A DNA stretch of 64,000 bases from the UHGV virus genome UHGV-0021788; one strand, given 5' to 3'. The notes beneath the pieces are model-generated. The model was not told where the DNA came from. It searched no databases and saw nothing but the letters and a program-made list of their open reading frames with translations. The translations under genes and the position numbers were made by a program. Below are positions 4,023 to 64,000 of the stretch, in pieces (the first letter of the stretch is position 1; each line of letters starts with the position of its first letter). Source of the stretch: a virus.

Positions 4023-6098
4023 ATGGCAAATCTTTCAATTATTGGTAGTCCTTCGACTACCAATAATAACCTTATAGTTAGTTATAGTACGGATATTTCA
4101 GATATCACTAATATAGAAATTAGTAATAATGGAAGCAATTATATAAGTGCCACAACTTTTTCAAATAGTTCTGCAACCTTTGATGTATCTAGTTGGAAAA
4201 ATGGTACTTATAATTCATGTACTTTAAGGGTTACATATGGTAAAACTGGAGAAGAAACTCAGTTACTTATTAATAATATAGGAAATATAACACAAACAGT
4301 AGGAAATTCATTTTATATAAAATATAGCACAAATAAAGCAGTAACAAAACATGAAGTTTCATGGGATGGTGGAAGCACGTTCCACGATAAAACAAGTGAT
4401 GTAACTTCTAGTGGTAATAATTATTCTTTTAAACACGATGATAAAGCTAGTGCTGGAACTTATAGGATGGCTATAAGGGTAACTACTTCAAGTGGAGAAA
4501 CTAAAACAAGTAATATATTTACAGTAACTATAACTTCAGGAGTGTCAGTAGATACTTATTATACTGTTAAATATAACTTAAATAATGCTAGTAGTTCTAA
4601 TACAAATACAACTGTTAAAAAAGGTTCTAGTTATTCTACTACCATTTCTCCTGCAAGTAACTATAGAATAAAAACAATATATTGCGTAATGGGTGGTACT
4701 GATATAAGTAGTTCAACTGTTAGTGGTAATAATATTAATATACCTAATGTTACAGGCGAAATCAATATTACTGTTACAACAGAAGCAATTTCAAGTGGAG
4801 GCACAGATACTTATTATCCTGTTAATTATCATTTACATAATGCTACTAGTACCAACTCAGCTACTTCAATTAAAAAAGGTTCTAGTTACTCTACTACCGT
4901 TGCTCCTGAAAATGGTTATAGAATAACTAAGATATACTGTGTAATGAATGGTGATGACATAAGTGATTCAACAGTTAGTGGTAACAATGTCTACATAGGT
5001 AATGTTATAGGAGAAATTCATGTTACTGTATATACAGAAGCAATTTCTGGTACTAAGATTTATACAGTAACTAGAAATGTAACTAATTGTACATCAACAG
5101 GAAGTGATACTTTAGATACTTCAATAACTACAACATTCCAAAGTGTAGTTGCACCTAATGATGGATGTGTATTAAAAACTTTAACTGTAAGTATGGGTGG
5201 AGTTGACTATACTAATGGTCTTGATGTTATAACGGATATGGAATGGAATGGAAAACCTGCCAAACTAATAACTATTAAAAACGTAAATGGTAATATAGTT
5301 ATTAATGCAGTTGCTGAAAAAGAAAGCACTAAACCTGATATACCTGATACACCAATTGTAGATGATACTTTAGAAATATTACCTTCATGTACATATGTTG
5401 ATATTGCTGAAGGTGGAAGTAAAACAATATACTTTAAATTATCAAATAAACCTACATCAAGTACAACTATAAATATTTCTTCATCATCTTCTTATTTAAC
5501 ACTTTCTACAAGTCAATTAACTTTTACTGCTAATAATTATCATATTGCTCAATCTGTAAATGTAACTTCTATTAGTGATAACAATAAAACTGATGATATA
5601 TATAATATAACCGTATCAGCAAATGGCTTAACAAGTAAAACAATAACAGTAGATGTTATAGATAGTGCTAATAGTAATTTTGAAGTAATTTATGACAATG
5701 GTACTTTAGTGAACGGAGCTTCATTCTCATTAAGTAATGCGGTTAACAATGGAACTTATATAAGTACTAATCAAAGTCAAGATGTTAGTGTTGGTATAAG
5801 CAATCATCCATTAAGTCTTAATAAAAATGATAAAGTACATGTAGTTTTAGGATTAGGAACAAGTGACCCATCATCAATTTATTCTTTACGTAGTTTAATT
5901 TTAGGCGATGGTTCTGCTAATAATATAAGTAATTCTAATATGATTAATGAAGTGCAAATAAATGAAGCGTTATCAAGCGATGGTAAAGTAGATACTTACT
6001 GGACTATTGCTGGTAATTTATCAAATATAACTTTAACATTCACATGTTATTTCGCACGAGTTAATATTTATAAAATTTATATAGAAAGAGGGAAATAA
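4023..6098 (+). CDS. Tail/host-recognition protein with tandem Ig-like beta-sandwich repeats. Shares modules with the next gene.
   Basis: RBS GGAAGGTGATATAATGG. Duplicated ~80-aa repeat 'TYYTVKYNLNNASSSNT...ITVTTEAIS' and module 'FYIKYSTNKAVTKHEVSWDGG...' also present in ORF 6101. Confidence 0.5.
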   Translation: MANLSIIGSPSTTNNNLIVSYSTDISDITNIEISNNGSNYISATTFSNSSATFDVSSWKNGTYNSCTLRVTYGKTGEETQLLINNIGNITQTVGNSFYIKYSTNKAVTKHEVSWDGGSTFHDKTSDVTSSGNNYSFKHDDKASAGTYRMAIRVTTSSGETKTSNIFTVTITSGVSVDTYYTVKYNLNNASSSNTNTTVKKGSSYSTTISPASNYRIKTIYCVMGGTDISSSTVSGNNINIPNVTGEINITVTTEAISSGGTDTYYPVNYHLHNATSTNSATSIKKGSSYSTTVAPENGYRITKIYCVMNGDDISDSTVSGNNVYIGNVIGEIHVTVYTEAISGTKIYTVTRNVTNCTSTGSDTLDTSITTTFQSVVAPNDGCVLKTLTVSMGGVDYTNGLDVITDMEWNGKPAKLITIKNVNGNIVINAVAEKESTKPDIPDTPIVDDTLEILPSCTYVDIAEGGSKTIYFKLSNKPTSSTTINISSSSSYLTLSTSQLTFTANNYHIAQSVNVTSISDNNKTDDIYNITVSANGLTSKTITVDVIDSANSNFEVIYDNGTLVNGASFSLSNAVNNGTYISTNQSQDVSVGISNHPLSLNKNDKVHVVLGLGTSDPSSIYSLRSLILGDGSANNISNSNMINEVQINEALSSDGKVDTYWTIAGNLSNITLTFTCYFARVNIYKIYIERGK
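4300..4530 (+). repeat. ~230-bp module ('FYIKYSTNKAVTKHEVSWDGG...IRVTTSSGETKTSNIFTVT') present here and twice in ORF 6101 (~7930-8160, ~9375-9600).
   Basis: Protein-level identity ~75-85% between the three copies. Confidence 0.6.
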
Positions 6099-21704: not shown

Positions 21705-24380
21705 ATGCCTAATAGAATTTGGAGTGAAGAAAAAAAAGATTGGATAATAGTCGATGAAACAAATTTAGCTACAAATATAGAAGTAATGGATATCAAAGAG
21801 TACTATCATAAAAAGAAAACAGAAGAAGAAACAAAAGATGATGAATTTTTAAGTGTTGAAAAATGCTTAGAACAAATAGGGGATAAAATAAATAATGGTG
21901 ATATAGGTGCTATAGGTGAAATAAAAGATAAAGTACAAGATTTGGATGACAGAGTAACCTATATTGAAGAAAACGGTGGTGGTGGAGGAGGTGGCTCTTC
22001 CATGCCTACCGTTAAACTTCTTAGTGATAGTTATTATGCTATACCAACCGATGGAGAATTAAATATTTATTATAACTTTACTTCTCCAAATATAGGATTT
22101 GGTACAGCATTTATAAGTTTAGACTATGGAACAGCTGAACAGTTATCAGTTGCACAAGGTCGTAATTTTTATACTGTAAAAAACTTAGAAAAAGGTGAAC
22201 ATAGACTAGATATATATGTAACTGATATAACAGGTTTATTCTCGAATACAGTTACAGTAACAATAGTTGTTGGTGGACTTGAATTAACTTCTAATTTTGA
22301 CGATAGTACGGATTTATCCTTAGAGGATTATATTAGAATAAGATATGTTATCTCAACAATATCTTCTAAGCCAATTGAAGTGTCTATTGAAATAGATGGT
22401 AAACTAACAAAAGCAGAAGGTATAATTGGTCAAAATATATTGGAAGTTGGACAGTTTAGTTCATTAGGGGTTCATACAGTTAAAATATCAGCCGTCAGTG
22501 GTGATTTAGTATCAAACCAATTAGTATTTAATTTAGTTGTAGCCGATTCAGAAAATCTTTATGTATCTACTACTTTTCCTGATAATTATACTATACAAGT
22601 AGGTAAAAACCTACAAATTGATTATAGAAATAGTATGGTAAATCAAAATAGATTTATTACTCATATGCTTATAAATGGTACTGAAGTAGATACGGTAACA
22701 TCTTATTCAGGATATAACTATTGGAACGTTGGGTCTAATTTAGAGATAGGTTTATATACTTTAACATTATATTCTACTACATCCGATGGTGCATATACAT
22801 CAAATTATTTAACATGGGTAATAGATGTTGTTTCAGAAGACTATGTTCCCTTTAAGGTTGTAACAGATGGGTTATTATGTAATTTTGATGCTAATGGTAA
22901 TCAACAAACATCTTCTAGTAGAAACATATGGAAAGACGATAGTGGAAACGACGTTAAATGTGAATTGTTTAATTTCAACTATTCTACAAATGGTTGGATA
23001 GATAACAGTTTAGTATTTAATGGTAAAACATATGCTAAAATAGATTTTTCTCCTTTTAGTGATAATATCAAAAATGGTATGACAATTGATATGTTATTTA
23101 AAGTAAAAAATGTTGGTGATATAGACGGAAAAGTATTATGGTGTAAAAATCCAATTACACCTTACCAAGGTTTTTATATAAATACTTATGAGGCAAATTG
23201 TCGTTCTGCCAACTCAAGAATAGTTAGTAACCAATTTCAAGATGACACATGGACTAGAATAACATGGGTTATTAATAGAGAAGATTTGACAATGATAGCT
23301 TATGTAAATGGTATCATAACGAAACCTGTATATATAACAGATACAGAAAACTTTAGAATGGAAAAAGATATTTATCTAGGTGTATCATTTGACGAAGTAG
23401 ATAACAATTTAGATAATGATGGTAATCCAATACCTCACTATGCATCTTGTTCTATAAAAACATTTAGAATATATGATAGAGCATTAACTGATGAAGAAAT
23501 ATTACAAAATCATATTGCCGATATAAAAGATAAAGAAAAACAATTGGAAATAAGAGAAAAGAACTATGGTGATAGTACAATGCCTATCATAAAATTTGAA
23601 GGTAATGTAGAAGGTATGGATGGTAGTATCTATAAATTATTAACAATAGATTATAATGACCCATTAGACCCATCTAAACGTTTTAGACAAGAACAATGTA
23701 GAGTAAAATGGCAAGGTACTTCTTCACTAGAATATCCAGTAAAAAACTATACAATAGAACTTAGAAGTGGTGGTAACGTTTGGGAATATGCTCCTAAAGA
23801 CAATTGGCTACCAGAAAAAAGATATACTTTGAAGGCTTCGTTTATGGATAGTTCTACATATAATAACGTTGGTTCTTCTAAATTAATTTATGATTACTTT
23901 AGAAAATCTAATATGTTTTATCCACAAGAAATTAAAAATCCTAAAACTAGAGCAGTAATAGATGGTTTCCCAGTTAGACTTTATATTAATGGGGAATCAA
24001 AAGGTATATATATGTTCAATATAGATAGATATGCTGAAAACAATTATGGATTTTCTGGGGAATCATCAATTGTATCTTATGAAATAGCTGTCAACTCTGA
24101 AAGTGGTGCTGGTGCTTTCGCATCAGATGCTTGGTCAAGTATACGTTCTGAATTTGAAATGAGATATCATTATGCTGGAGATGAAAGTGTTGTATGTGAA
24201 ACTGTTATGGAAAATGGTGTACCAACTACTGTTTTAAAAGCAGGTTTTCATTCAGAATTACAAAATTTAGTTTCATGGGTATTAAATTCTACTATAGAAG
24301 AGTTTAGAAGTGAATTAAAAGAACATTTTGAATTAAACTTTTTAATAGATTATTATCTATGGGTTCTATGTTTGGGTTAA
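21705..24380 (+). CDS. Exon 1 (891 codons) of a giant CotH-kinase-like / BspA-LRR tail protein. The ORF-track stop at 24378-80 lies in the intron; the exon probably ends at 24377.
   Basis: RBS GGTGGTGATAG. CotH-family region 'MPIIKFEGNVEG...KRYTLKASFMDSSTYNNVGSSKLIYDYF...GFPVRLYINGESKGIYMFNIDRYAENNYGF' ending '..NFLIDYYLWVLCLG'. Confidence 0.55.
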   Translation: MPNRIWSEEKKDWIIVDETNLATNIEVMDIKEYYHKKKTEEETKDDEFLSVEKCLEQIGDKINNGDIGAIGEIKDKVQDLDDRVTYIEENGGGGGGGSSMPTVKLLSDSYYAIPTDGELNIYYNFTSPNIGFGTAFISLDYGTAEQLSVAQGRNFYTVKNLEKGEHRLDIYVTDITGLFSNTVTVTIVVGGLELTSNFDDSTDLSLEDYIRIRYVISTISSKPIEVSIEIDGKLTKAEGIIGQNILEVGQFSSLGVHTVKISAVSGDLVSNQLVFNLVVADSENLYVSTTFPDNYTIQVGKNLQIDYRNSMVNQNRFITHMLINGTEVDTVTSYSGYNYWNVGSNLEIGLYTLTLYSTTSDGAYTSNYLTWVIDVVSEDYVPFKVVTDGLLCNFDANGNQQTSSSRNIWKDDSGNDVKCELFNFNYSTNGWIDNSLVFNGKTYAKIDFSPFSDNIKNGMTIDMLFKVKNVGDIDGKVLWCKNPITPYQGFYINTYEANCRSANSRIVSNQFQDDTWTRITWVINREDLTMIAYVNGIITKPVYITDTENFRMEKDIYLGVSFDEVDNNLDNDGNPIPHYASCSIKTFRIYDRALTDEEILQNHIADIKDKEKQLEIREKNYGDSTMPIIKFEGNVEGMDGSIYKLLTIDYNDPLDPSKRFRQEQCRVKWQGTSSLEYPVKNYTIELRSGGNVWEYAPKDNWLPEKRYTLKASFMDSSTYNNVGSSKLIYDYFRKSNMFYPQEIKNPKTRAVIDGFPVRLYINGESKGIYMFNIDRYAENNYGFSGESSIVSYEIAVNSESGAGAFASDAWSSIRSEFEMRYHYAGDESVVCETVMENGVPTTVLKAGFHSELQNLVSWVLNSTIEEFRSELKEHFELNFLIDYYLWVLCLG

Positions 24381-24469
24381 TACAATGGCTCAAGTAAAAC
24401 TTTCTCTGATTAATGGCGAACACCCTAGTAGAAAAGGGCAACGCTCAAGAAGATTTATTTAACAATATT

Positions 24470-24498
24470 TTGACTTTTAATAAAATAAGTAGTATAAT
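24470..24498 (+). promoter_or_regulatory. Sigma-A-type promoter TTGACT-N17-TATAAT for the GIY-YIG HEG.
   Basis: TTGACT 24470-75, TATAAT 24493-98, RBS AAAGGGGTGA, ATG 24520. Confidence 0.6.
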
Positions 24499-24519
24499 AT
24501 AAATGAAAGGGGTGATACT

Positions 24520-25230
24520 ATGAGTGAAAATAAATATTATGTTTATGAATGGATTAGATTAGACACAAATGAACCATTTTATGTAGGTAAAGGTTGTGGA
24601 GATAGATGGAGGAATTTATATAGGGATTACAATCCTCGTTTTATGAATATAATAAATAAAGTACCAGTAGCAGTATCAATATTAATAAATAATTTAACAG
24701 AAAAGGAATCTTTTGATTTTGAATGTTATTATATATGGTTATATAAAGATATTATAGGATATGATATATGCAATATAAATGAAGGTGGGGAAGGTCAAAG
24801 TTTATGTGGTGAAGCTAATGGTTTTTATGGTAAACATCATTCAGAAGAAACTAAAAAATTATTAAGTGAACAACATAAAGGCATGACTTATTCTCAAGAG
24901 ACAAAAAATAAATTGAGTGCTATGAGAAAAGGTGAAGGGAACGCTATGTGGGGACGTAGAGGAGAATTATCTCCGCATTGGGGTAAAAAATATTCAGAAG
25001 AAAGAAAAAATAATATTAGTAAAGCAATGGGTACTTCTGTAAAGTGTATTGAATTAAATATAGAATTTAATAGTCTTAATAAAGCAGAAAAATATATGAT
25101 TAAAGAATATGATATTAAATTTTCTCATAAAACTTTAAAAGCTACGATAGAAAAAAGAAGAAAAAAAGATTGGTATGGAGAAATAGAAATTAATGGAGAA
25201 TTAATTAAACTTCATTGGGAATATTGTTAA
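24520..25230 (+). CDS. GIY-YIG homing endonuclease with NUMOD3-like repeats (I-TevI-like), intron-encoded.
   Basis: 'KYYVYEWIRLDTNEPFYVGKGCGDRWRNLY' (GIY...YIG...R). Repeats 'GKHHSEETKKLLSEQHKGMTYSQETKNKLSAMRKGEGN'. Confidence 0.75.
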   Translation: MSENKYYVYEWIRLDTNEPFYVGKGCGDRWRNLYRDYNPRFMNIINKVPVAVSILINNLTEKESFDFECYYIWLYKDIIGYDICNINEGGEGQSLCGEANGFYGKHHSEETKKLLSEQHKGMTYSQETKNKLSAMRKGEGNAMWGRRGELSPHWGKKYSEERKNNISKAMGTSVKCIELNIEFNSLNKAEKYMIKEYDIKFSHKTLKATIEKRRKKDWYGEIEINGELIKLHWEYC

Positions 25231-25428
25231 ATAAAATCACTTGCAACGACTGAGTGAGAAAGGCTTAAAGATTAATTCTTTAAGTAAGCAACAGTCTGAA
25301 CTTGCGAATATAATTTCTACAAAAAACAAATCGCAGAAGAGGGGTCATCGGTAATCAGACCGATTAAAGAAGAACCCCTCTCGCCAACTTAGGTTGGTCA
25401 GTAGCCGAAAGGTGAAAGTAACAGAATG

Positions 25429-25446
25429 CTAGTAGACAACTTGGGT
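25429..25446 (+). CDS. Putative 18-nt micro-exon 2 of the CotH/LRR gene (LVDNLG).
   Basis: Sits between the 3' end of intron a (...ACAGAATG) and a second td-like 5' splice context 'CTTGGGT|TTAATGATTTTGGCTCAAG'. Keeps the reading frame. Confidence 0.4.
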
Positions 25447-25693
25447 TTAATGATTTTGGCTCAAGTATAAAATTCTCTCTGATTAATGGCGAACACCCTA
25501 GTAGAAAAGGGCAACGCTCAGGAAGATTTATAAAATCACCTGCAACGACTGAGTGAGAGAACACTTATTTAAGTGAAGCAACAGTCTGAACTGCAAATAT
25601 AATTTCTACAATAACAAATTGCAGAAGGAAGTTGAAGTGCTTCCTCGCCAACTCAAGTTGGTCAGTAACCGAAAGGTGAAAGTAACAGAATTG
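25447..25693 (+). mobile_element. ORF-less group I intron 'b' (247 nt). It is intron a without the HEG cassette.
   Basis: 5' region near-identical to 24381-24460 (IGS GCTCAAG, 'CTCTGATTAATGGCGAACACCCTAGTAGAAAAGGGCAACGCTCA'). R 'CTGCAACGACTGAG' 25530-43. S 'CAACAGTCTGAAC' 25577-89. 3' '..AGTAACAGAATTG'. Confidence 0.6.
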
Positions 25694-25786
25694 AAAAATA
25701 TGGTTTTAACAACTTTCGGTATGAATGCTGAAGGTAACGTAATTTGGTATCCATCCTTTGACATAGGAGGATGTAAAACTCTCTTT
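25694..25786 (+). CDS. Putative 93-nt exon 3 of the CotH/LRR gene (KNMVLTTFGMNAEGNVIWYPSFDIGGCKTLF).
   Basis: In-frame with exons 1/2 and 4. Contains a CotH-family 'N..L....G.W..IPWDLD..G'-like motif (NVIWYPSFDIGG). Confidence 0.45.
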
Positions 25787-26003
25787 AATTGACTTGGAAG
25801 TCCTGAAGAGGACGACAGGGGGCAAGTTTAAATACAGCCTGAACGACTAAACAAGAGAGCATTATCATATTGATAATGATGTGATAGTCTGAACTCTAGT
25901 AATAACTTGTTTTAATGAAACTAGAGAAGGAAATCCGAAGTGTTTTCCTCGCCATAAAATATTATGGTCAGTAGCTTAGGAATAAGTGAAAGTAACAGAA
26001 TGG
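25787..26003 (+). mobile_element. Compact ORF-less group I intron 'c' (217 nt).
   Basis: Begins 'TAATTGACTTGG' (cf. td 'UAAUUGAGG'). IGS 'GAAGAG' pairs with exon 'CUCUUU'. R 'CCTGAACGACTAAAC' 25836-50. S 'GTGATAGTCTGAAC' 25890-903. 3' end '..GTGAAAGTAACAGAATGG' as in introns a and b. Confidence 0.55.
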
Positions 26004-29000
26004 TATGATGCAGACTCAGAGTTGGGTTTAACCAACGATGGTGAGTTAAGATACGGTTCAGGTATCGACACTTTAACAGATAATTTCAATACTTCTGATT
26101 CTAAATTATGGACTAAATTACTAGAAGCTTTCCCAGATGAAGTACAAGCAAGATATATCTATATGAGAAGTAATGGATTTATGACTTATGAAAATATTAT
26201 AAAATATTATGAAAATATAGCAGATACAATTGGTCAAACATTCTATAATGAAGATGCAAGACTTAAATATATTAATGAAGATAATAAATCATTTATTTAT
26301 ATGTGTAATGGTTCAAGACTTGAACATACAAAAAGATGGTTAAGCGAACGTATTGTATATATGGATAGTAAATTTAACTATGGTGATTTCTTATTATCTT
26401 CTACTATACGTTCAAATGTTTCCGGTGAGGTATCATTAAAAGTAAAAACATATTCACCTCAATGGGTAGAAATATCTTTCTCAGATAGTGCTACAGGTAC
26501 AACAAGACAATGGTGTAGTAAAGATAAATGGTATACATTTATAAATACCATTGAAAATGCCGTCGACAACAATATCACCATTAGAGGTGTAACTAATATA
26601 ATGTATTTACAAGGATTAGAAAATTTAAATGTATCTTCTTTACTTGTATCAAATGCAAAAGGTTTATGTGAAATTGATATTCATGGTTCTAAACGTATTC
26701 AAAGATTGGAACTAGGTAACAATATCATGTTACAAAAACTTAATTGTAAAGATTGTATTAATTTAGGTATTGATGATAACTATAAAGTTGTTAACTTGGA
26801 AAAATGTATCAACTTAAAATATCTTGATTTATCTAATACTATGATAGGTACACTTCAATTAAATAAAGATGGTGGTGCATTAGAATATTTAGATTTATCT
26901 GAAACAGAATTAACTTATTTAACTTGTAACCATCAAGAATATTTACCTGAAATAAAATTAGATGGTTGTAAAAATCTATCATCTGTTACTATTAATGGTT
27001 GTAATGCATTAACAAGATTGAGTTTACCTAATACTAAATTAGCTGAATTTACTGTAACAGATTGTAATAGTTTAAATTACCTTGATATATCATATACTGG
27101 TTATTTAGTAAAATTAGATTTAACAGGTTGTAGTAGTTTAACTACTTTAATAATGTCAGGTATAGCAAATAATAAATTTACTGAATTAGATGCGAGAACA
27201 TTAACAAAATTAACAACATTAGATGTGTCTAAATGTTATTTCTTAAATAATATAAGATTTGCTAATGGATATAATGCTTTAACATCTGTAAACTTCCAAC
27301 AAAGTGGGATTAAGACTTTACAGTTTGGAAATAATGAAAAACCTCCTTATTTAGATTTATCTCCATTTAATTTAACAGAAGTTAATTTCTATAACTGTAC
27401 TGAAATAGAATATATTAAAAATATAAAATTATATGCTACAAAATCCATAGAACCTTTTTATAATTGTGTTAATTTACACACTATAGAAGGTACTATAAGT
27501 TTAACTGATGATTTAGGAAGAAGTTTTTATAATTGTAAAAAACTAGTTAATTTACCTACTTTAGATTTAAGTAGAGTTAAAACAGCTTCGGATTCCTTTA
27601 TGCATTGTGAGTCTTTAACTTATGACCAATTACTAGAAATTTTAGGTAAGATGAATAATTGTCAAAGTTTTTATAGAACTTTCCAAAACTGTTTAGCTAT
27701 GGAACATGACGGTTGGGAAAAAGCTTTATTCGATAAGATACCAAAAGCAACTTATTTTTATTGGACATTCTCAGATACTCCAATAAGCGGACAATTAGAG
27801 CAAGGAATCTTTGATAGTTTATTAGATTTACAAACTGTAGATGGATTATTTAGCGGTGGTAAGGCAAAAGGTTATATTCCAGCCAATCTATTCAAATATA
27901 ATACAAAATTACAAAATCTTTGGAATCTATTTAATGGATGTAAAGAATTAGAAACTGCTACTAATATAGTAAACATGTTTACCACTACAGTAGATTTAAG
28001 AGGTATAGAGGGATTATTTAGTGGTTGTACTAATGCTTTTATGAAACTAAGTGATACATGGTTTGCAAATTGTCCAGAGCTACAAAATATGGATTATGCT
28101 TTTGCAAATTGTACAAACTTAATTGGTTCTATAGCTGAAAATCCTCATATGATAAAAAATAAATCTAAATTAACAACAGCAGAACATACCTTCCTTAATT
28201 GTACAGGCATAAGTGGTGATTTACCTGATGATTATTTTGTTGGGTGTACTGCTTTACAAGAAATACAAGGACATTTTCAAGGATGTACTGGTCTAACAGG
28301 AACTCCTAAAACTGAATCATGGATAGATTGTGAAAATATAACTAATGCTTCATATTTATATGCAGGATGTACTGGTTTAGGTGGTATAGCAGGTGCTACT
28401 CAAGAAATACCTAAAGATTTCTATAAAAGAAAATATAGACTTATAGATATATCTGGTATGTGGCAAGGTTGTAATCAACTACAATTTTCTCTAATGCCAT
28501 TAAAAGAAGATAAGTTAGGTGAGGATGGAGCTGTTATAGAAAAAGGGGACGACCCTTGGTTTGTTGATTGTAGACAGTTAGCGAAAATAAATTATCTATT
28601 TGATGGTTGTAGTAATTTATCATCTGTAATACCTTCTAGGTTATTTGAAGTTTGGGATGAAAAAGGCGAAGTAATGGATACACTTATAACAGAAGCTAAA
28701 GCGGTATTTAAAAATTGTCAATTACTTACAGATGAAATACCAGAAAATCTATTTGAAAAATTTATTAAAGTTAGAGATTTAACTGAATTTTTCTATCAAT
28801 GTAGAAGTTTAACTGGTGGTATTCCTGATACATTATTTTCTAATTGTTATTCTTTAGTTTATGCTAATAGAATGTTTATGCGTTGTGGTAAATTAGGAAA
28901 ATATGCAGACCAAGTAACAGAAGAAGAGCCATATTTCTGTAATGAAGAACTATTTTGGAACTGTCCTAACCTATTGGAAATATCTCAATTATTCCATATG

Positions 29001-29396
29001 TATGATGGATGGGGAACTTCTCTAAGAGGAGACATACCTCCATTGTTATTTAGAGCTAATCCTAAATTACAAAATATAAATAATGCCTTTGCTGGTTGTA
29101 GTCTTTTAACTGGTGGGTTGGATGGGCAACTATTTGTTAGAAATGCTAAATTAAAAACTGCTAGAGAAACTTTCCACGGTTGCTCAGGTTTAAATGGAGA
29201 AATGAGTGGAGCGTTATTTACCTCTACTAATAATCCACTTTTAACAGATTTCTATCAAACCTTTCAAAATTGTAAAAATATACAAGGTACTGCACCTTCA
29301 TTATGGACACAATTCTCTAATGCAAATGGTGGAGGATGTTTTAATGGATGTACTAAATTAAGTAATTATGCAGATATACCTTCACAATGGAAATAA
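25986..29396 (+). CDS. Exon 4 of the CotH/LRR gene (true exon start ~26004): BspA-type leucine-rich repeats (LRR_5) and Cys-containing repeats. The GTG 'start' of the ORF track is intron sequence.
   Basis: 'gtgaaagtaacag' before nt 26004 is present in all three intron 3' ends. 'LDLSNTMIGTLQLN', repeated 'F.NC..L' BspA-type LRRs. Terminator after the stop. Confidence 0.55.
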   Translation: MKVTEWYDADSELGLTNDGELRYGSGIDTLTDNFNTSDSKLWTKLLEAFPDEVQARYIYMRSNGFMTYENIIKYYENIADTIGQTFYNEDARLKYINEDNKSFIYMCNGSRLEHTKRWLSERIVYMDSKFNYGDFLLSSTIRSNVSGEVSLKVKTYSPQWVEISFSDSATGTTRQWCSKDKWYTFINTIENAVDNNITIRGVTNIMYLQGLENLNVSSLLVSNAKGLCEIDIHGSKRIQRLELGNNIMLQKLNCKDCINLGIDDNYKVVNLEKCINLKYLDLSNTMIGTLQLNKDGGALEYLDLSETELTYLTCNHQEYLPEIKLDGCKNLSSVTINGCNALTRLSLPNTKLAEFTVTDCNSLNYLDISYTGYLVKLDLTGCSSLTTLIMSGIANNKFTELDARTLTKLTTLDVSKCYFLNNIRFANGYNALTSVNFQQSGIKTLQFGNNEKPPYLDLSPFNLTEVNFYNCTEIEYIKNIKLYATKSIEPFYNCVNLHTIEGTISLTDDLGRSFYNCKKLVNLPTLDLSRVKTASDSFMHCESLTYDQLLEILGKMNNCQSFYRTFQNCLAMEHDGWEKALFDKIPKATYFYWTFSDTPISGQLEQGIFDSLLDLQTVDGLFSGGKAKGYIPANLFKYNTKLQNLWNLFNGCKELETATNIVNMFTTTVDLRGIEGLFSGCTNAFMKLSDTWFANCPELQNMDYAFANCTNLIGSIAENPHMIKNKSKLTTAEHTFLNCTGISGDLPDDYFVGCTALQEIQGHFQGCTGLTGTPKTESWIDCENITNASYLYAGCTGLGGIAGATQEIPKDFYKRKYRLIDISGMWQGCNQLQFSLMPLKEDKLGEDGAVIEKGDDPWFVDCRQLAKINYLFDGCSNLSSVIPSRLFEVWDEKGEVMDTLITEAKAVFKNCQLLTDEIPENLFEKFIKVRDLTEFFYQCRSLTGGIPDTLFSNCYSLVYANRMFMRCGKLGKYADQVTEEEPYFCNEELFWNCPNLLEISQLFHMYDGWGTSLRGDIPPLLFRANPKLQNINNAFAGCSLLTGGLDGQLFVRNAKLKTARETFHGCSGLNGEMSGALFTSTNNPLLTDFYQTFQNCKNIQGTAPSLWTQFSNANGGGCFNGCTKLSNYADIPSQWK

Positions 29397-60557: not shown

Positions 60558-62145
60558 TTATTTATTTGCTTTTCTATATTCATATTCTTCTTTATTTAAT
60601 TCTTCTACTTCTTCTTCATTAAGTAAATGATATTCATCACACCATATTTCAAACTCTCCATTTTGTACCCATTTTGTTTTAGTTATTGTATTTCCATCTT
60701 TGTCTATTGTTTCAACTTCTTTTTTTTCTTTTTTTGCCTTTTGAAACATATGGTATACATTGATTACACTAAATGCTTTAAATGGTTGTGCTTCATAAAT
60801 TCCTTCACCAACTTTTATTTCTATGTTTTTTCCAGTACTTATATTAAAAATCCATGCTTTTTTATTCTTAAATTTGGTTATAACATCAATAACGATACAA
60901 GTTGATGAATCATAATCTTCAAAATAATAATTACATTCTCCAGTCATTTCAAGATTAATTTTAACCTTATCTATTGATGGCATTTCGTTATCTTCTATAT
61001 TCAACATTAATTCATTACATAATTCTAATGCTTTTTCTACTTTATATTGTTTATATTTATCTTCTTTACTTTTTTCAGTTGCATATTTTTCTATTATTTC
61101 TTTAGGATATGGTAGGTCAGCTTTATTAAATGATACTTCACCTTTCTTAGATTTTAATTTTTTACTCATTATTTTTTCATATAAATCTATAATATCTAAT
61201 AATTTTTGTGATTTACCAAATTCATCGAAGAAATCTATTGCTATTAATATATTAAGTTGTCTTGAGTTTATAGATGTTTTATCATTTAAATCAATAAGTA
61301 AATCCATAAAACTATTATATTTATTATCTTTTAACATATATAATTCTTGTGATACTTGTTCATTCATATATTTTATACTAGCCATACCTTTATATATAGA
61401 ATTACTTTCTTTATCCATAAAATATTCAGCTTTAGAATATCTAAATTTAGGTGGTAATAATTTTATATCAAAATAACTTAATTCTTTTATTAGTCTATTT
61501 GTTCTAGTTGAATCATCGGAATAAATAGATAGGGCAACTGTATAATATTCAAGAGGATAATGTGATTTTAAAAATGCTCCATACAGACTATCATAGGCAT
61601 AAGAAAGTGAATGTGAAGCATTGAATGAATATTTTGAAGCATCATTAACTACTTGCCATGTTTCTTCAAATCCATCAATTGAACCAACTTTATCTATCCA
61701 ACCTTTTTTTAATTTTTTTTCTAACTCTATTAATTCTTTTTCTTTAAATTTTTTCTTTGATATTTTTTTAATAATTCCATATGTTTCAGGCTCAGGAATA
61801 CCTAACCATATTAAATATTTCATAATAGATTCTTGATACATCAAATAATGATAACTATCTTCTAACAAATTATCCAATTCTTTTACACCTGTTGTATATG
61901 GTTTTCTTTCTATAAAATTATCTAATAAAGAAGCAAATCCTGGTCTAATTGAAGCAACAAACGCACTCATTTCAGCTACACTAGAAACTTTATATCTTGA
62001 TGCTAAATTAGTTGCAAAATCTGAATCAGATTGATTTATTGTACAAGTTATTTTATCTTCATATATTTTAAATGTTTTTTCATCTAACATTTTTTCTAAT
62101 TCTTTAATAGTCGGTATTTTAATATTAGCTAATTCACAAGTTTTT
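60558..62145 (-). CDS. dnaE: 3' exon of the split dnaE-type DNA polymerase III alpha gene. The ORF track starts at internal ATG 62090.
   Basis: 'SKYSFNASHSLSYAYDSLYGAFLKSHYPLEYYTVAL' (DnaE 'SFNKSHA..YA..Y.TAYLK.HYP' motif). Frame open upstream of the ATG to ~62150, no RBS. Confidence 0.55.
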
Positions 62146-62515
62146 CTTATTAATGTCCAAACTGTAACCGCAAGATACGTTAATACCGTTCCTTTCGGAA
62201 TACTTTAACACCCATTTAAGGGTCGGACTAGACTATACCTTTATCTTCGACATTACTCGTTAAGATATGCCTATTATAGTCGTTGAAGGTTTCCCATTTT
62301 AAAGGGATTTCCCTGCTGATTATCCATTCATTCGCCCTTAGCGCCTTTTACAAGGCTTTTATTTCAGCTTAGGTAATCCTTATAATTTTTTCTGCTTTCG
62401 CAACCATCAAGCTTAATGTCACCATTTACTTTGTGGTTTATAAGGCTTTAGGAACTCCCAGCAATTTAAGGCATCATAATCTACATAATTTCTTATATAG
62501 ACGACTATTAAATTA
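62146..62515 (-). mobile_element. ORF-less group I intron in dnaE, same family as the phosphoesterase-gene introns. Splice sites approximate.
   Basis: On the - strand: P 'AAATTGCTGGGAG' (rc of 62456-68), Q 'AATCAGCAGG' (rc of ~62312-21), R 'CCTTCAACGACTAT' (rc of 62277-90), S 'GGTATAGTCTAGTCC' (rc of 62226-40), 3' end '..TTTGGACATTAATAAG'. Confidence 0.6.
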
Positions 62516-64000
62516 ATCATTCTTTAGATATTTATAAACATCACAATTATAACCATCTAAATTACAACATATTCCTTCTTTAGTTTTTATTAAACCAATT
62601 TCTTCTGAAACATTTTTATCATATAATAACATTGAACAAGGTGATTCTGATATACTTTCTACTACTCCTTTAAATACTTTTGAATCTTTTATTATTTTTC
62701 CCCAATATTCATCATTTTCATATTGTTCTAAATTTTTAGCTATTTCATCATATTTACTAACATGCATATCATTTGCCTTACACCATAGTCTAAAAGCAGA
62801 TGAATCTTGTAAAGGTTTATATGATAAAATCCAAGCACAATTTTCTTCGCCTAATAAATCTTTAGTTGCTTGTATAAATACTGAACGGTCTTCTGTATTT
62901 AAATCTACATCAGGCAATGAACGTGTACCTAATATACGTTCTATACTCATAAATCTAGTTGGATACAATGGAACTGGTGCAGACAATCTATCTATTTCTG
63001 TTAAACCTAATAATTTATTTATAATAAAACTTACAGCTGAATTATGAACTATCATATTATTAAGTAAATAACTATGCTCATTTTCAACTTCTATATCATA
63101 TACTGTGGTTTTTTGTTTAGGTAATATAATGATTTCCTTAATAGGAAGATAATAGTAATTATTATCCTCGAAAGTTCTTTCATTTTTTTTCTGTGAATAA
63201 TTAGAATTTTTATTTAATCTTAATTTATAAGATTCTTTACATAAATACCCTTCTTTCATTTTATGTTCTTTTCTTACGCTTAAACTATTTACTCCTTCAT
63301 CCGTCATTAAACATAATAATTTATATGCGTTTATTAAAGATTTTGAAGTATTATCGAAATTGATTCTATATTCACAAAAGCTTCCATCTGATAATCTTAA
63401 TCCTTTTACTATACCTAATAAATTTTCTTTTGATTGATTAAACCATTTTTCATTAAATATTTTATCTTTTCCTTTTTTAGATTCAAATAATTCCTGTTTA
63501 ACAAAATTACAAAATACTGTAGAATTAATATATAGTTGACTTAATTTTTTAGTTTTACTTACATTTTCATATATAGATTTATTTAATTTAGATGCTATAT
63601 TATAAAATATTTCTCTATTATATTTATCTTTTTCAGTAGTATTGTTTATGGCTAATCCAACACTGGTTTTTTTAGAAGTAAATCCGTCGCCATACATTAA
63701 TCCTATAAATATATTAAATTCTTTATCTATTTCAATATATCTTTCTAATTTTGAAAATTGTTTAGATTTAACATATTTAGAATATTCTTCTTGGGTATTA
63801 AAAGGTATATAATCCATTAAAGCTTTATATTTATCTTTTTTCCTATTAAAACAATTTTTTTTCATATTTGCAAAATTTTCTACTAATGACTTACCAACAC
63901 CTATTTTTCTTGCAACATCACTAGGAGAATATTTATAAATAGTATTAGTTTTTTCATATATATATTTATCATCAAAATCAAATCCGTTGATATTATAATC
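62516..64000 (-). CDS. dnaE: 5' exon segment of dnaE, 5'-partial at the window edge. Contains the C-terminal part of an intein and the downstream extein.
   Basis: Extein 'SAVSFIINKLLGLTEIDRLSAPVPLYPTRFMSIERILGTRSLPDVDLNTEDR' (pol III alpha core). Frame open to nt 64000. Confidence 0.55.
63041..64000 (-). mobile_element. Intein with a LAGLIDADG homing-endonuclease domain inside dnaE. The N-terminal splice junction lies beyond the window.
   Basis: LAGLIDADG-like 'IFIGLMYGDGF' and 'LGIVKGLRLSDGSF'. Intein C-terminus 'YDIEVENEHSYLLNNMIVHN|S' (His-Asn + Ser+1 at 63038-63043). Confidence 0.6.

Follow-up and report, generated by a model that had tools for sequence, protein, structure and literature searches.

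A homing-endonuclease-bearing group I-like intron and its ORF-less sibling in a phage tail-fibre-like gene: sequence evidence suggestive of endonuclease loss

In this study, we analysed a stretch of 64,000 nucleotides (nt) of the virus genome UHGV-0021788 (hereafter the window), in which the region 21705-29396 of the + strand represents a single large tail-fibre-like gene in four pieces. The open reading frame (ORF) listing of the region comprises an 891-amino-acid (aa) ORF that ends at 24380, a 236-aa ORF at 24520-25230 and a 1136-aa ORF that starts at 25986, and Pfam searches with the gene pieces returned matches to CotH and Laminin_G_3. The pieces are separated by three intron-like elements, A, B and C, the first of which holds the 236-aa ORF, a predicted homing-endonuclease gene (HEG) of the GIY-YIG type (Table 1). 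A first-pass annotation of this DNA had presented introns A and B as a snapshot of invasion, in which a cassette of promoter and HEG entered a pre-existing intron at a TTAA site. Our analyses uphold its recognition of siblings with and without an HEG in one gene; however, the two introns are not 1 kb apart as it had stated, since only the 18-nt exon 2 lies between them and the figure is approached by the distance between their 5' ends (1069 nt). They also suggest a different history for the pair, in which intron B would be an HEG-less derivative of an HEG-carrying intron.

Table 1. Features of the tail-fibre-like gene and its introns, and a further intron elsewhere in the window. Coordinates are those of the window; functional assignments are predictions.
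Feature	Position	Strand	Details
Exon 1	21705..24377	+	2673 nt; LamG-like domain and first two-thirds of CotH domain; 3' end TTGGGT
Intron A	24378..25428	+	1051 nt; group I-like; guide GGCTCAA at 24388-24394; last base G25428
Left arm of closing stem	24454..24469	+	TTTATTTAACAATATT; extends P6a and closes the ORF loop
Promoter-like element, sigma-70 type	24470..24498	+	TTGACT-N17-TATAAT; 11/12 consensus; directly after left stem arm
Ribosome-binding site (RBS)	24506..24515	+	AAAGGGGTGA; 4 nt upstream of ATG; read from sequence
Homing-endonuclease gene	24520..25230	+	236 aa, uninterrupted; N-terminal GIY-YIG, NUMOD3 repeats, C-terminal DNA-binding domain
Right arm of closing stem	25220..25235	+	AATATTGTTAAATAAA; holds last ORF codons (...TAT TGT TAA) and stop
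Exon 2	25429..25446	+	18 nt, CTAGTAGACAACTTGGGT; codes LVDNLG; 3' end again TTGGGT
Intron B	25447..25693	+	247 nt, without ORF; guide same as intron A; last base G25693
Exon 3	25694..25758	+	65 nt; 3' end ATCCTT, pairing with GAGGAT of intron C
Intron C	25759..26002	+	244 nt, without ORF; more distant family member; last base G26002
Exon 4	26003..29396	+	3394 nt; remainder of CotH domain and leucine-rich repeats
Site D, unoccupied TTGGGT	26022..26027	+	ELG/LTN; related introns occupy the same codon in relatives
Intron in dnaE-like gene	62210..62527	-	Between ORFs 60558-62090 and 62513-63865

The intron boundaries were placed from the reading frame together with the group I rules (exon-final U against guide G, and an intron-final G). 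At the first of them, the TTGGGT that terminates exon 1 pairs with the guide sequence of intron A, and the first three bases of the intron form the in-frame TAA stop of the exon 1 ORF. The spliced product reads ...LWVLCLG/LVDNLG/KNMVLTTFGMNAEGNVIWYPSL/YDADSELGLTNDG... (slashes mark junctions), and after in-silico splicing the CotH match is continuous at 59.5 bits, compared with 31 bits for exon 1 alone. An uninterrupted homologue in the IMG/VR contigs L001 and L003 (76% nt identity) can be aligned without gaps across all three junctions. In addition, intron B is missing exactly at the predicted junctions from L100 and L177, in which the exon 2 stretch joins exon 3 directly, and intron C is missing exactly at its predicted junction from L180, whose PSLYD reading settles a one-base ambiguity at junction C as TT/G. 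Precise removal of introns A, B and C restores the reading frame and the CotH domain. Gene callers fragment this receptor-binding protein, and such phages will be misannotated as long as their introns go unrecognised. Exon 2 is itself in frame, and because the guides of A and B and the exon hexamers preceding them are identical, skipping of this exon is predicted: splicing from the 5' site of A to the 3' site of B would remove LVDNLG from the CotH motif.

The Rfam group I model gave no match to A, B or C, either in the whole window at the gathering score or in 24300-26100 at E <= 10, a result that weighs against their assignment to group I. The same model (RF00028) does find a different intron, in dnaE, at 65.3 bits, and thus the family of A, B and C would seem to lie beyond its reach. 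A hidden Markov model (HMM) of that family matched all three introns at E = 9e-28 to 3e-45 (3e-39 for B and 3e-45 for C, with A matched in two segments, 24376-24473 and 25215-25428) and had no other match in the window. A 16-mer, GTGAAAGTAACAGAAT, is common to A, B and C, its three occurrences comparing with 0.09 expected. When IMG/VR was scanned with this 16-mer and the matches were then filtered by the HMM, more than 60 related elements were found in its contigs, often several per contig: four in the viral contig L095, three in L086 and two each in L045, L069, L011, L012, L065, L049, L032, L063, L067 and L084. The elements of these multi-copy contigs are mostly ORF-less and ~210-230 nt long, and they include GC-rich versions from environmental viromes.

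A secondary structure for the family was modelled by hand with P3, P4, P5, P6, P6a, P7 (in a pseudoknot with P3), P8, P9 and three more 3' hairpins, and was counted on 23 diverse members. Standard pairs were present in 90.9% of the model cells and changes on both sides were seen in 39 of the 52 pairs, values that none of 500 shuffles reached; controls with slid partners gave 33-45% pairing. P4 switches wholesale across the family between GGCG/CGCT and CTTG/CAAG (intron C, when aligned with A and B, has the latter type), whereas P7 is invariant, which is compatible with the model and provides no covariation support for it. At site 0 (the insertion sites of the CotH region are named 0, KAS/FMD; A, LG/LVD; B, NLG/KNM; C, PSL/YD; and D, ELG/LTN), P1 and the exon covary: the pairing is AGCGAGT/GCTCGCT in L100 and AGCCTGT/GCAGGCT in L001. 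The family introns have no P2 and a single hairpin between P3' and P7', and A, B and C all obey the rule of a U-G pair in P1 and an intron-final G. A pairing proposed by RNAalifold, TCTG/CAGA (columns 163-166 with 315-318), was not adopted, as it involves invariant columns only and competes with P7. An in-frame stop codon at the intron 5' start has been noted for bacterial and phage introns (PMC3984707). Because the structure covaries, the junctions are precise, the U-G and terminal-G rules are obeyed and an in-frame stop lies at the start of A, we regard A, B and C as group I introns of a lineage outside the Rfam model, presumably active in splicing.

Introns A and B were aligned globally with a gap-tolerant, affine-gap method, which produced one large gap of 774 nt at 24457-25230 of intron A (a 2-nt 'AT' ambiguity makes 24459-25232 just as good a placement). 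Matches in the flanking blocks number 59/62, 27/28, 16/16, 17/18 and 45/48 positions, and with the cassette removed the two introns are identical at 211 of 229 aligned core positions (92.1%). The description of intron A in the first-pass annotation, as intron B plus a cassette of promoter, RBS and GIY-YIG ORF, is therefore well founded, with the correction that the cassette measures 774 nt and not 770 bp. The two introns are collinear around it in their core blocks; collinearity does not extend to the hairpins P8 (21 nt in A, 14 nt in B) and P9.1 (42 nt in A, 18 nt in B), which differ in length. The right-hand junction of the cassette is marked by 25231-25240 (ATAAAATCAC), the first bases after the ORF stop. 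In a mini-fold of P6-P6a of intron B, P6 (CAGG/CCTG) encloses a plain P6a hairpin, GATTT-ATA-AAATC, at 25525-25537, and it is the loop of this hairpin that the cassette replaces in intron A. The similarity of A and B is far beyond chance, as is evident from the family HMM E-values and from the count of the common 16-mer.

Several lines of evidence bear on the product of the ORF. Pfam NUMOD3 matched it in two copies (E = 5e-12) and PHROG 314 'homing endonuclease' matched at E = 1e-18; Pfam PF01541 gave no direct match to the HEG, although one is precomputed for its homologues P0029, P0041 and P0042. A search of the PDB with the single sequence returned noise only, and a profile built from 18 homologues was needed to retrieve GIY-YIG proteins (E = 0.014) and 1i3j, the DNA-binding domain of I-TevI (E = 0.003). 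The AlphaFold (AF2) model has a mean pLDDT of 77.7, with ~80-93 in the N-terminal domain, and its top Foldseek matches are all GIY-YIG nucleases (probability 0.96-1.0, with weak E-values of 0.013-0.06). The catalytic positions Y9, Y21, R29, E68 and N85 are invariant in the 18 homologues, as is G23. These results point to a GIY-YIG homing endonuclease of I-TevI-like architecture, with predicted endonuclease activity, and the dN/dS of 0.10-0.38 against its orthologues indicates that the gene is maintained and not decaying. Cleavage of the intronless allele and homing are predicted for it, with purifying selection and its recurrence at one site in several phages as indirect evidence. A protein 100% identical to it (P0001) is recorded on an NCBI/ENA contig of 206 kb.

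All of the cassette contents listed by the first-pass annotation (TTGACT-N17-TATAAT, RBS, GIY-YIG ORF and stop) were found, and the cassette sits in the terminal loop of P6a in the covariation-backed structural model. This is the position the annotation had claimed by likeness to the td intron of T4, which carries I-TevI in its P6a loop region (PMC3073962). The promoter-like element, whose promoter function is a prediction, is the best such site in a 2-kb scan. A module TTGAC(A/T)-N17-TATAATATAAAT is likewise found ahead of the ORFs in the loops of L100, L171 (both introns), L009, L001 and L024, and GGAGGTGA/GGGGTGA is kept at the RBS in orthologues; L175 has no promoter module at all, and L177 has a -10 (TATAATATAAGT) without a -35. 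In the form TTGAC(A/T)-N17-TATAATATAAAT(A) with GGAGGTGA, the module was observed upstream of ORFs from unrelated nuclease families in different introns (24470-24505 in the window; L171:2950-2995 and 4068-4115), and it may be a shared expression module or just the promoter consensus of the host or phage.

The arms that close the ORF loop form a 16-nt inverted repeat that is 100% complementary and the longest perfect one in intron A, and a mini-construct of the stem folds at -17.5 kcal/mol (z = -6.2). The stem is retained through compensatory changes in L177 (left arm GATTTATTTTAACAATAT, right arm ATATTGTTAAAATAAATC), L171 (GATTAATTAATATAT and ATATATTAATTAATC), L175 (GATATATTATACAT and ATGTATAATATATC) and L009 (GAAAATTTATTAACA and TGTTAATAAATTTTC). 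Since orthologues keep the stem with differing sequences, the arms are under selection as an RNA helix that clamps the ORF loop, and are neither a DNA insertion target nor the ends of a transposon. This has consequences for the TTAA sequences. The cassette is indeed bounded by TTAA at both ends (24459-24462 and 25227-25230); however, these are the ORF stop codon preceded by T (TGT TAA) and its complement within the covarying stem. Moreover, intron B has no TTAA at the corresponding site, where it reads GATTTATAAAATC, and the stem of L175 has none at all, so that insertion at a TTAA site, as had been claimed, is contradicted.

The perfect inverted repeat at the cassette ends and the 'AT' on both sides of the cassette could be taken to denote a small transposon-like DNA element with 11-bp terminal inverted repeats (TTAACAATATT) and a target duplication of AT (2 bp) or TTAA. 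We consider this extremely improbable. The arms vary yet stay complementary (TTAATTAATATAT in L171, TATATTATACAT in L175 and TTTATTAACA in L009), which marks an RNA stem, not a site bound by a transposase, and the right arm is the 3' end of the ORF itself. There is no transposase, the sole ORF being the GIY-YIG nuclease, and 'AT' is self-complementary and part of the stem, so that any stem through it mimics a direct repeat. A DNA transposon defined by terminal inverted repeats and a target-site duplication was rejected on the grounds that the arms covary instead of keeping one sequence.

Comparison with related phages revealed both HEG-bearing and HEG-less states, including allelic pairs. Close relatives, all from human-gut metagenomes, were found via homologues of the HEG protein followed by contig look-up. 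In the window, sites A (with the HEG), B and C are occupied and sites 0 and D are empty. In L180, L181 and L183, whose HEG has 99% aa identity to that of the window, the HEG-bearing intron is again at site A, sites B and D are occupied, and sites 0 and C are empty. In L100 and L101 (HEG 95%), site 0 holds an ORF-less intron, site A the HEG-bearing intron, site B is empty (TTAGGG), and sites C and D are occupied, with the intron C orthologue of L100 at the same site as in the window. L177 (HEG 83%) has the HEG-bearing intron at site A and an empty site B (TTGGGT), with sites 0, C and D outside the sequence covered. The HEG-bearing intron is also present at site A in L171 (HEG 71%), whose second intron holds an unrelated ORF of Zn-finger and Vsr-like type, and in L175 (68%). 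An ORF-less intron B with the same loop occurs in L180, L181, L183, L185 and L186.

Farther afield, the IMG/VR contigs L009 and L083 have a more distant CotH gene, with an A-type intron at site D that carries an orthologous HEG (54-60% aa identity; 54% by BLASTP). In L058 and L090 this intron is present at that site but has no HEG, the cores being almost identical. L024 and L035 have a related intron at site D with a treble-clef Zn-finger ORF, and site D is also occupied in L100 and L180. At site 0, the intron of L001 and L003 bears an HEG whereas that of L100 is ORF-less. Near-identical phages differ in their intron combinations at five sites, and the P6a loop of the family has received unrelated nuclease ORFs: GIY-YIG with NUMOD3, GIY-YIG with NUMOD1, and a treble-clef Zn finger with a Vsr/DUF559-like domain. 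Among these contigs, L182:3427-3700 (ENA ERZ28614418 scaffold_25822) has a hybrid intron with the 5' splice site of B and the 3' end of intron D, and it lacks the 87 nt of exon that separate these two sites. We treated it as a probable artefact because the hybrid would put a stop codon in the spliced mRNA; it is probably an assembly collapse over the ~60 nt of identical intron 3' ends rather than a recombinant defective phage.

The relatives also bear on the direction of change. With the HEG removed, core identity to intron A is 93.6% for L100, 92.1% for B, 90.7% for L177, 88.2% for L175, 85.5% for L171 and 84% for L009. HEG identities fall in broadly the same order, with L171 and L175 swapping places; the HEG and the ribozyme have thus diverged together. 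In a neighbour-joining tree of the intron cores (249 columns, 500 bootstraps), A grouped with the site A intron of L100 (100%), B grouped with the site A intron of L177 (100%), and those four were together at 88%; in addition, the L180 copy of B and the L177 intron with its HEG deleted are identical at 232 of 250 positions. Since B nests in an HEG-bearing clade and the HEG is at the same loop and site in relatives, the HEG would be older than the split between A and B, and we infer that the change was one of loss, in B. HEG loss that leaves an intact loop has been documented in introns of the Bacillus cereus group (PMC2504315).

We therefore favour, as moderately probable, a reading of B as an HEG-less derivative of an HEG-carrying intron that has lost its cargo and is resident at the second TTGGGT site. 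According to this scenario, the HEG-carrying intron at site A would be the older element in this phage group, with the 16-bp stem uniting both halves of the ribozyme core such that intron A can still fold and splice. Intron B would descend from such an A-type intron and would have shed its 774-nt cargo from the loop, so that P6a was reduced to a minimal hairpin. It would have come to occupy a nearby site that satisfies the P1 pairing rule, and would then have swapped peripheral hairpins with its neighbours by recombination. The pair of A and B thus suggests HEG loss and ectopic spread within the homing cycle, and not a fresh invasion. The snapshot of invasion proposed in the first-pass annotation is difficult to maintain given that an orthologous HEG lies in the same loop and gene site in L100, L180, L177, L171 and L175, that it has co-diverged with its intron, and that B falls inside the HEG-bearing clade. 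Its wider notion of the HEG as an independent invader of a pre-existing intron fares better at the level of the family, in which unrelated loop ORFs and HEG-bearing and HEG-less alleles mark the gene as a separable passenger; it is as a case of invasion that the A/B pair does not serve.

Several points weigh against loss in B. For most close relatives (L100, L171, L175, L177 and L180) the HEG served as the bait, which leaves HEG-less introns at site A too thinly sampled and biases the argument from parsimony. The tree was built on ~250 columns of visibly mosaic sequence, and no ORF remnant is present in B. The loop of the ORF-less site 0 intron of L100, GATTAATAAAATC, is nearly the same as that of B, which would fit a long-lived ORF-less lineage. 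Lastly, the loop of B equals exactly that of A minus the 774-nt cassette and one 'AT', a state that an insertion with a 2-bp duplication could also yield.

Apart from the tree and the missing remnant, these points also speak for the opposite direction, in which a B-like ORF-less intron was ancestral and a free promoter-HEG cassette entered its P6a loop to give A, the pair representing the states before and after. Such a history accords with the consensus of reviews that the ancestral introns had no ORF and that invasions took place on many occasions (PMC3984707, PMC3073962), and the unrelated ORFs in the same loop of related introns imply that loop invasions did occur in this family. We nevertheless judge it unlikely for this pair. 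The HEG has long been resident at site A, where it diverged along with the core, B nests among HEG-bearing introns with bootstraps of 100% and 88%, and a gene under purifying selection that is 54-99% identical across relatives is not a recent arrival. Furthermore, the cassette boundaries are the same in A and L009 despite their differing P6a, which independent illegitimate insertions would not reproduce, and B has no TTAA target.

A third history would have filled and empty P6a loops both circulating and being exchanged by homologous recombination through the flanking core, between co-infecting alleles or between paralogues, with B as an 'empty' allele. The introns are in fact mosaic: P9 of B is that of L100's A, P9.1 of B is that of L177's A, and the P9.2 hairpin of B is that of A in the window and of the L177 type in L180. 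Exchange would also be in keeping with the allelic HEG-bearing and HEG-less pairs with almost identical cores (L009/L083 versus L058/L090), with the site 0 pair of L001 and L100, and with the different intron combinations of near-identical phages. However, the junction between L009 and L058 is not that of a clean swap (ATTTT in L058 versus TATTAACA...TGTTAATA in L009). The origin of the empty allele is also left unexplained, and hence this history overlaps the other two and excludes neither; as an account of B in its own right we find it rather improbable. As a separate observation on these contigs, L009 and L058 differ at many positions in the ~130 nt of exon directly upstream of the intron and are near-identical farther upstream, and their intron core and 3' exon are virtually identical. 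Co-conversion or recombination may have produced this differing tract, which lies on the side where GIY-YIG enzymes cut.

 Introns A and B and the L009-type intron all follow TTGGGT and have the guide GCTCAA in common; of the five copies of TTGGGT in the 6150-nt spliced gene, two are occupied in the window and a third (26022-26027) is occupied in relatives. Intron D of L100 and the second intron of L171 have the guide GTCCAAG and both follow CTTGGAT, yet they lie four codons apart. Paralogues thus follow a hexamer or heptamer that matches their own guide, TTGGGT three times and CTTGGAT twice. Guide-sequence-dependent integration by reverse splicing has been reviewed (PMC3984707), and the pattern of sites fits such integration and survivorship, whereby only insertions that form P1 splice, equally well. 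The model of reverse splicing and ectopic transposition for rDNA introns resembles the present case in that non-homologous sites share 4-7 nt complementary to the guide (PMC3984707), and differs from it in that the gene here is a protein-coding phage gene, with no evidence for an RNA intermediate. Spread of the ORF-less members, including B, by guide-directed integration (reverse splicing or an equivalent P1-dependent route) would explain the differing intron combinations at five sites within ~900 nt of one gene, and why paralogues always follow a hexamer or heptamer matching their guide; we put it forward tentatively, as a doubtful proposition. Equally tentative is a related idea, that slippage over its 16-bp closing stem allows the HEG cassette to be shed cleanly. 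If guide-directed spread does occur, this gene would be a natural system in which to observe RNA-guided group I intron transposition in phages, for which, to our knowledge, there is no direct evidence anywhere.

The dnaE intron found by RF00028 (E = 2e-16) is a fourth group I intron of the window, of a different type, that splits a DNA polymerase III alpha (dnaE-like) gene; the whole-window Rfam scan at the gathering threshold missed it, presumably through speed filters. The window has a GC content of 27%, and its DnaE fragment is closest, at 50-54% aa identity, to those of phiCD211 and phiCDIF1296T, which are large Clostridioides difficile phages, and of the Clostridium botulinum phage c-st. 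Hence the source phage appears to be related to the large Clostridioides/Clostridium phages. DNA searches of INPHARED found no close phage, with only weak matches to other intron-like segments, and no match to the CotH region emerged from a protein-guided scan of JGI metagenomes. The HEG-less junction GAAGATTTATAAAATCAC was present at 68 loci in IMG/VR and metagenome contigs, none of which had a family intron, and neither IMG/VR nor the GTDB genomes contained the A-type 21-mer TGATTAATGGCGAACACCCTA. The sole match to a 21-mer from the 3' end of the HEG, L099, was rejected by alignment as a chance match.

A composite mobile group I intron beside an ORF-less sibling is textbook biology and leaves the field unchanged. 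The significance of our analyses lies in the uncovering of a large intron family that the Rfam group I model misses, and of a P6a loop in which no fewer than three unrelated nuclease genes have docked, each following a similar promoter module. In addition, the tail-fibre gene of these human-gut phages is unusually rich in introns and polymorphic, with five sites whose intron occupancy is combinatorial among genomes that are 95-99% identical. With its 18-nt exon and its HEG-bearing and HEG-less alleles and paralogues, the system should be useful for studies of the gain, loss and spread of mobile introns and of guide-dependent site choice.

Comparison with known systems places intron A closest in organisation to the td intron of T4 and its endonuclease I-TevI. 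Both are group I introns in a protein-coding phage gene, and both carry a GIY-YIG endonuclease whose linker and DNA-binding region are of the I-TevI type (NUMOD3; 1i3j match) and whose ORF has its own expression signals inside the intron (here promoter-like and predicted). In each, the P6/P6a loop houses the ORF, the 3' end of which takes part in P6a pairing (PMC3073962). They differ in that the ribozyme of intron A belongs to another sequence family, with no RF00028 match and no P2, and with P7.1/P7.2 replaced by one hairpin between P3' and P7'. The host gene here is CotH/leucine-rich-repeat tail-fibre-like and not one of nucleotide metabolism, the overlap of ORF and core in intron A is confined to the loop-closing stem, and an ORF-less paralogue lies 18 nt away. 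The orf142 gene of the Staphylococcus phage Twort, reportedly described by Landthaler & Shub in 1999, is said to have three group I introns in one gene. It resembles the present gene in having several closely related introns separated by short exons in one gene of a phage structural region, with exon skipping possible; the differences here are that one intron carries an HEG, that two introns have the same guide and the same 6-nt 5' exon motif, and that occupancy of five sites is combinatorial among near-identical phages.

The recA and nrdE genes of the Bacillus cereus group, in which HEG-containing and HEG-less group I introns occupy the same sites (PMC2504315), provide the nearest parallel for the history that we favour. 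There, as here, the presence or absence of the HEG is polymorphic, HEG-less copies are nested and were read as loss, the HEG lies in a loop from which its deletion leaves the ribozyme fold intact, and an in-frame stop is found at the intron 5' end (PMC2504315). ORF remnants were often kept in those introns (PMC2504315), whereas intron B has none. Furthermore, the HEG-less and HEG-bearing copies studied here are paralogues within one gene, and not only alleles.

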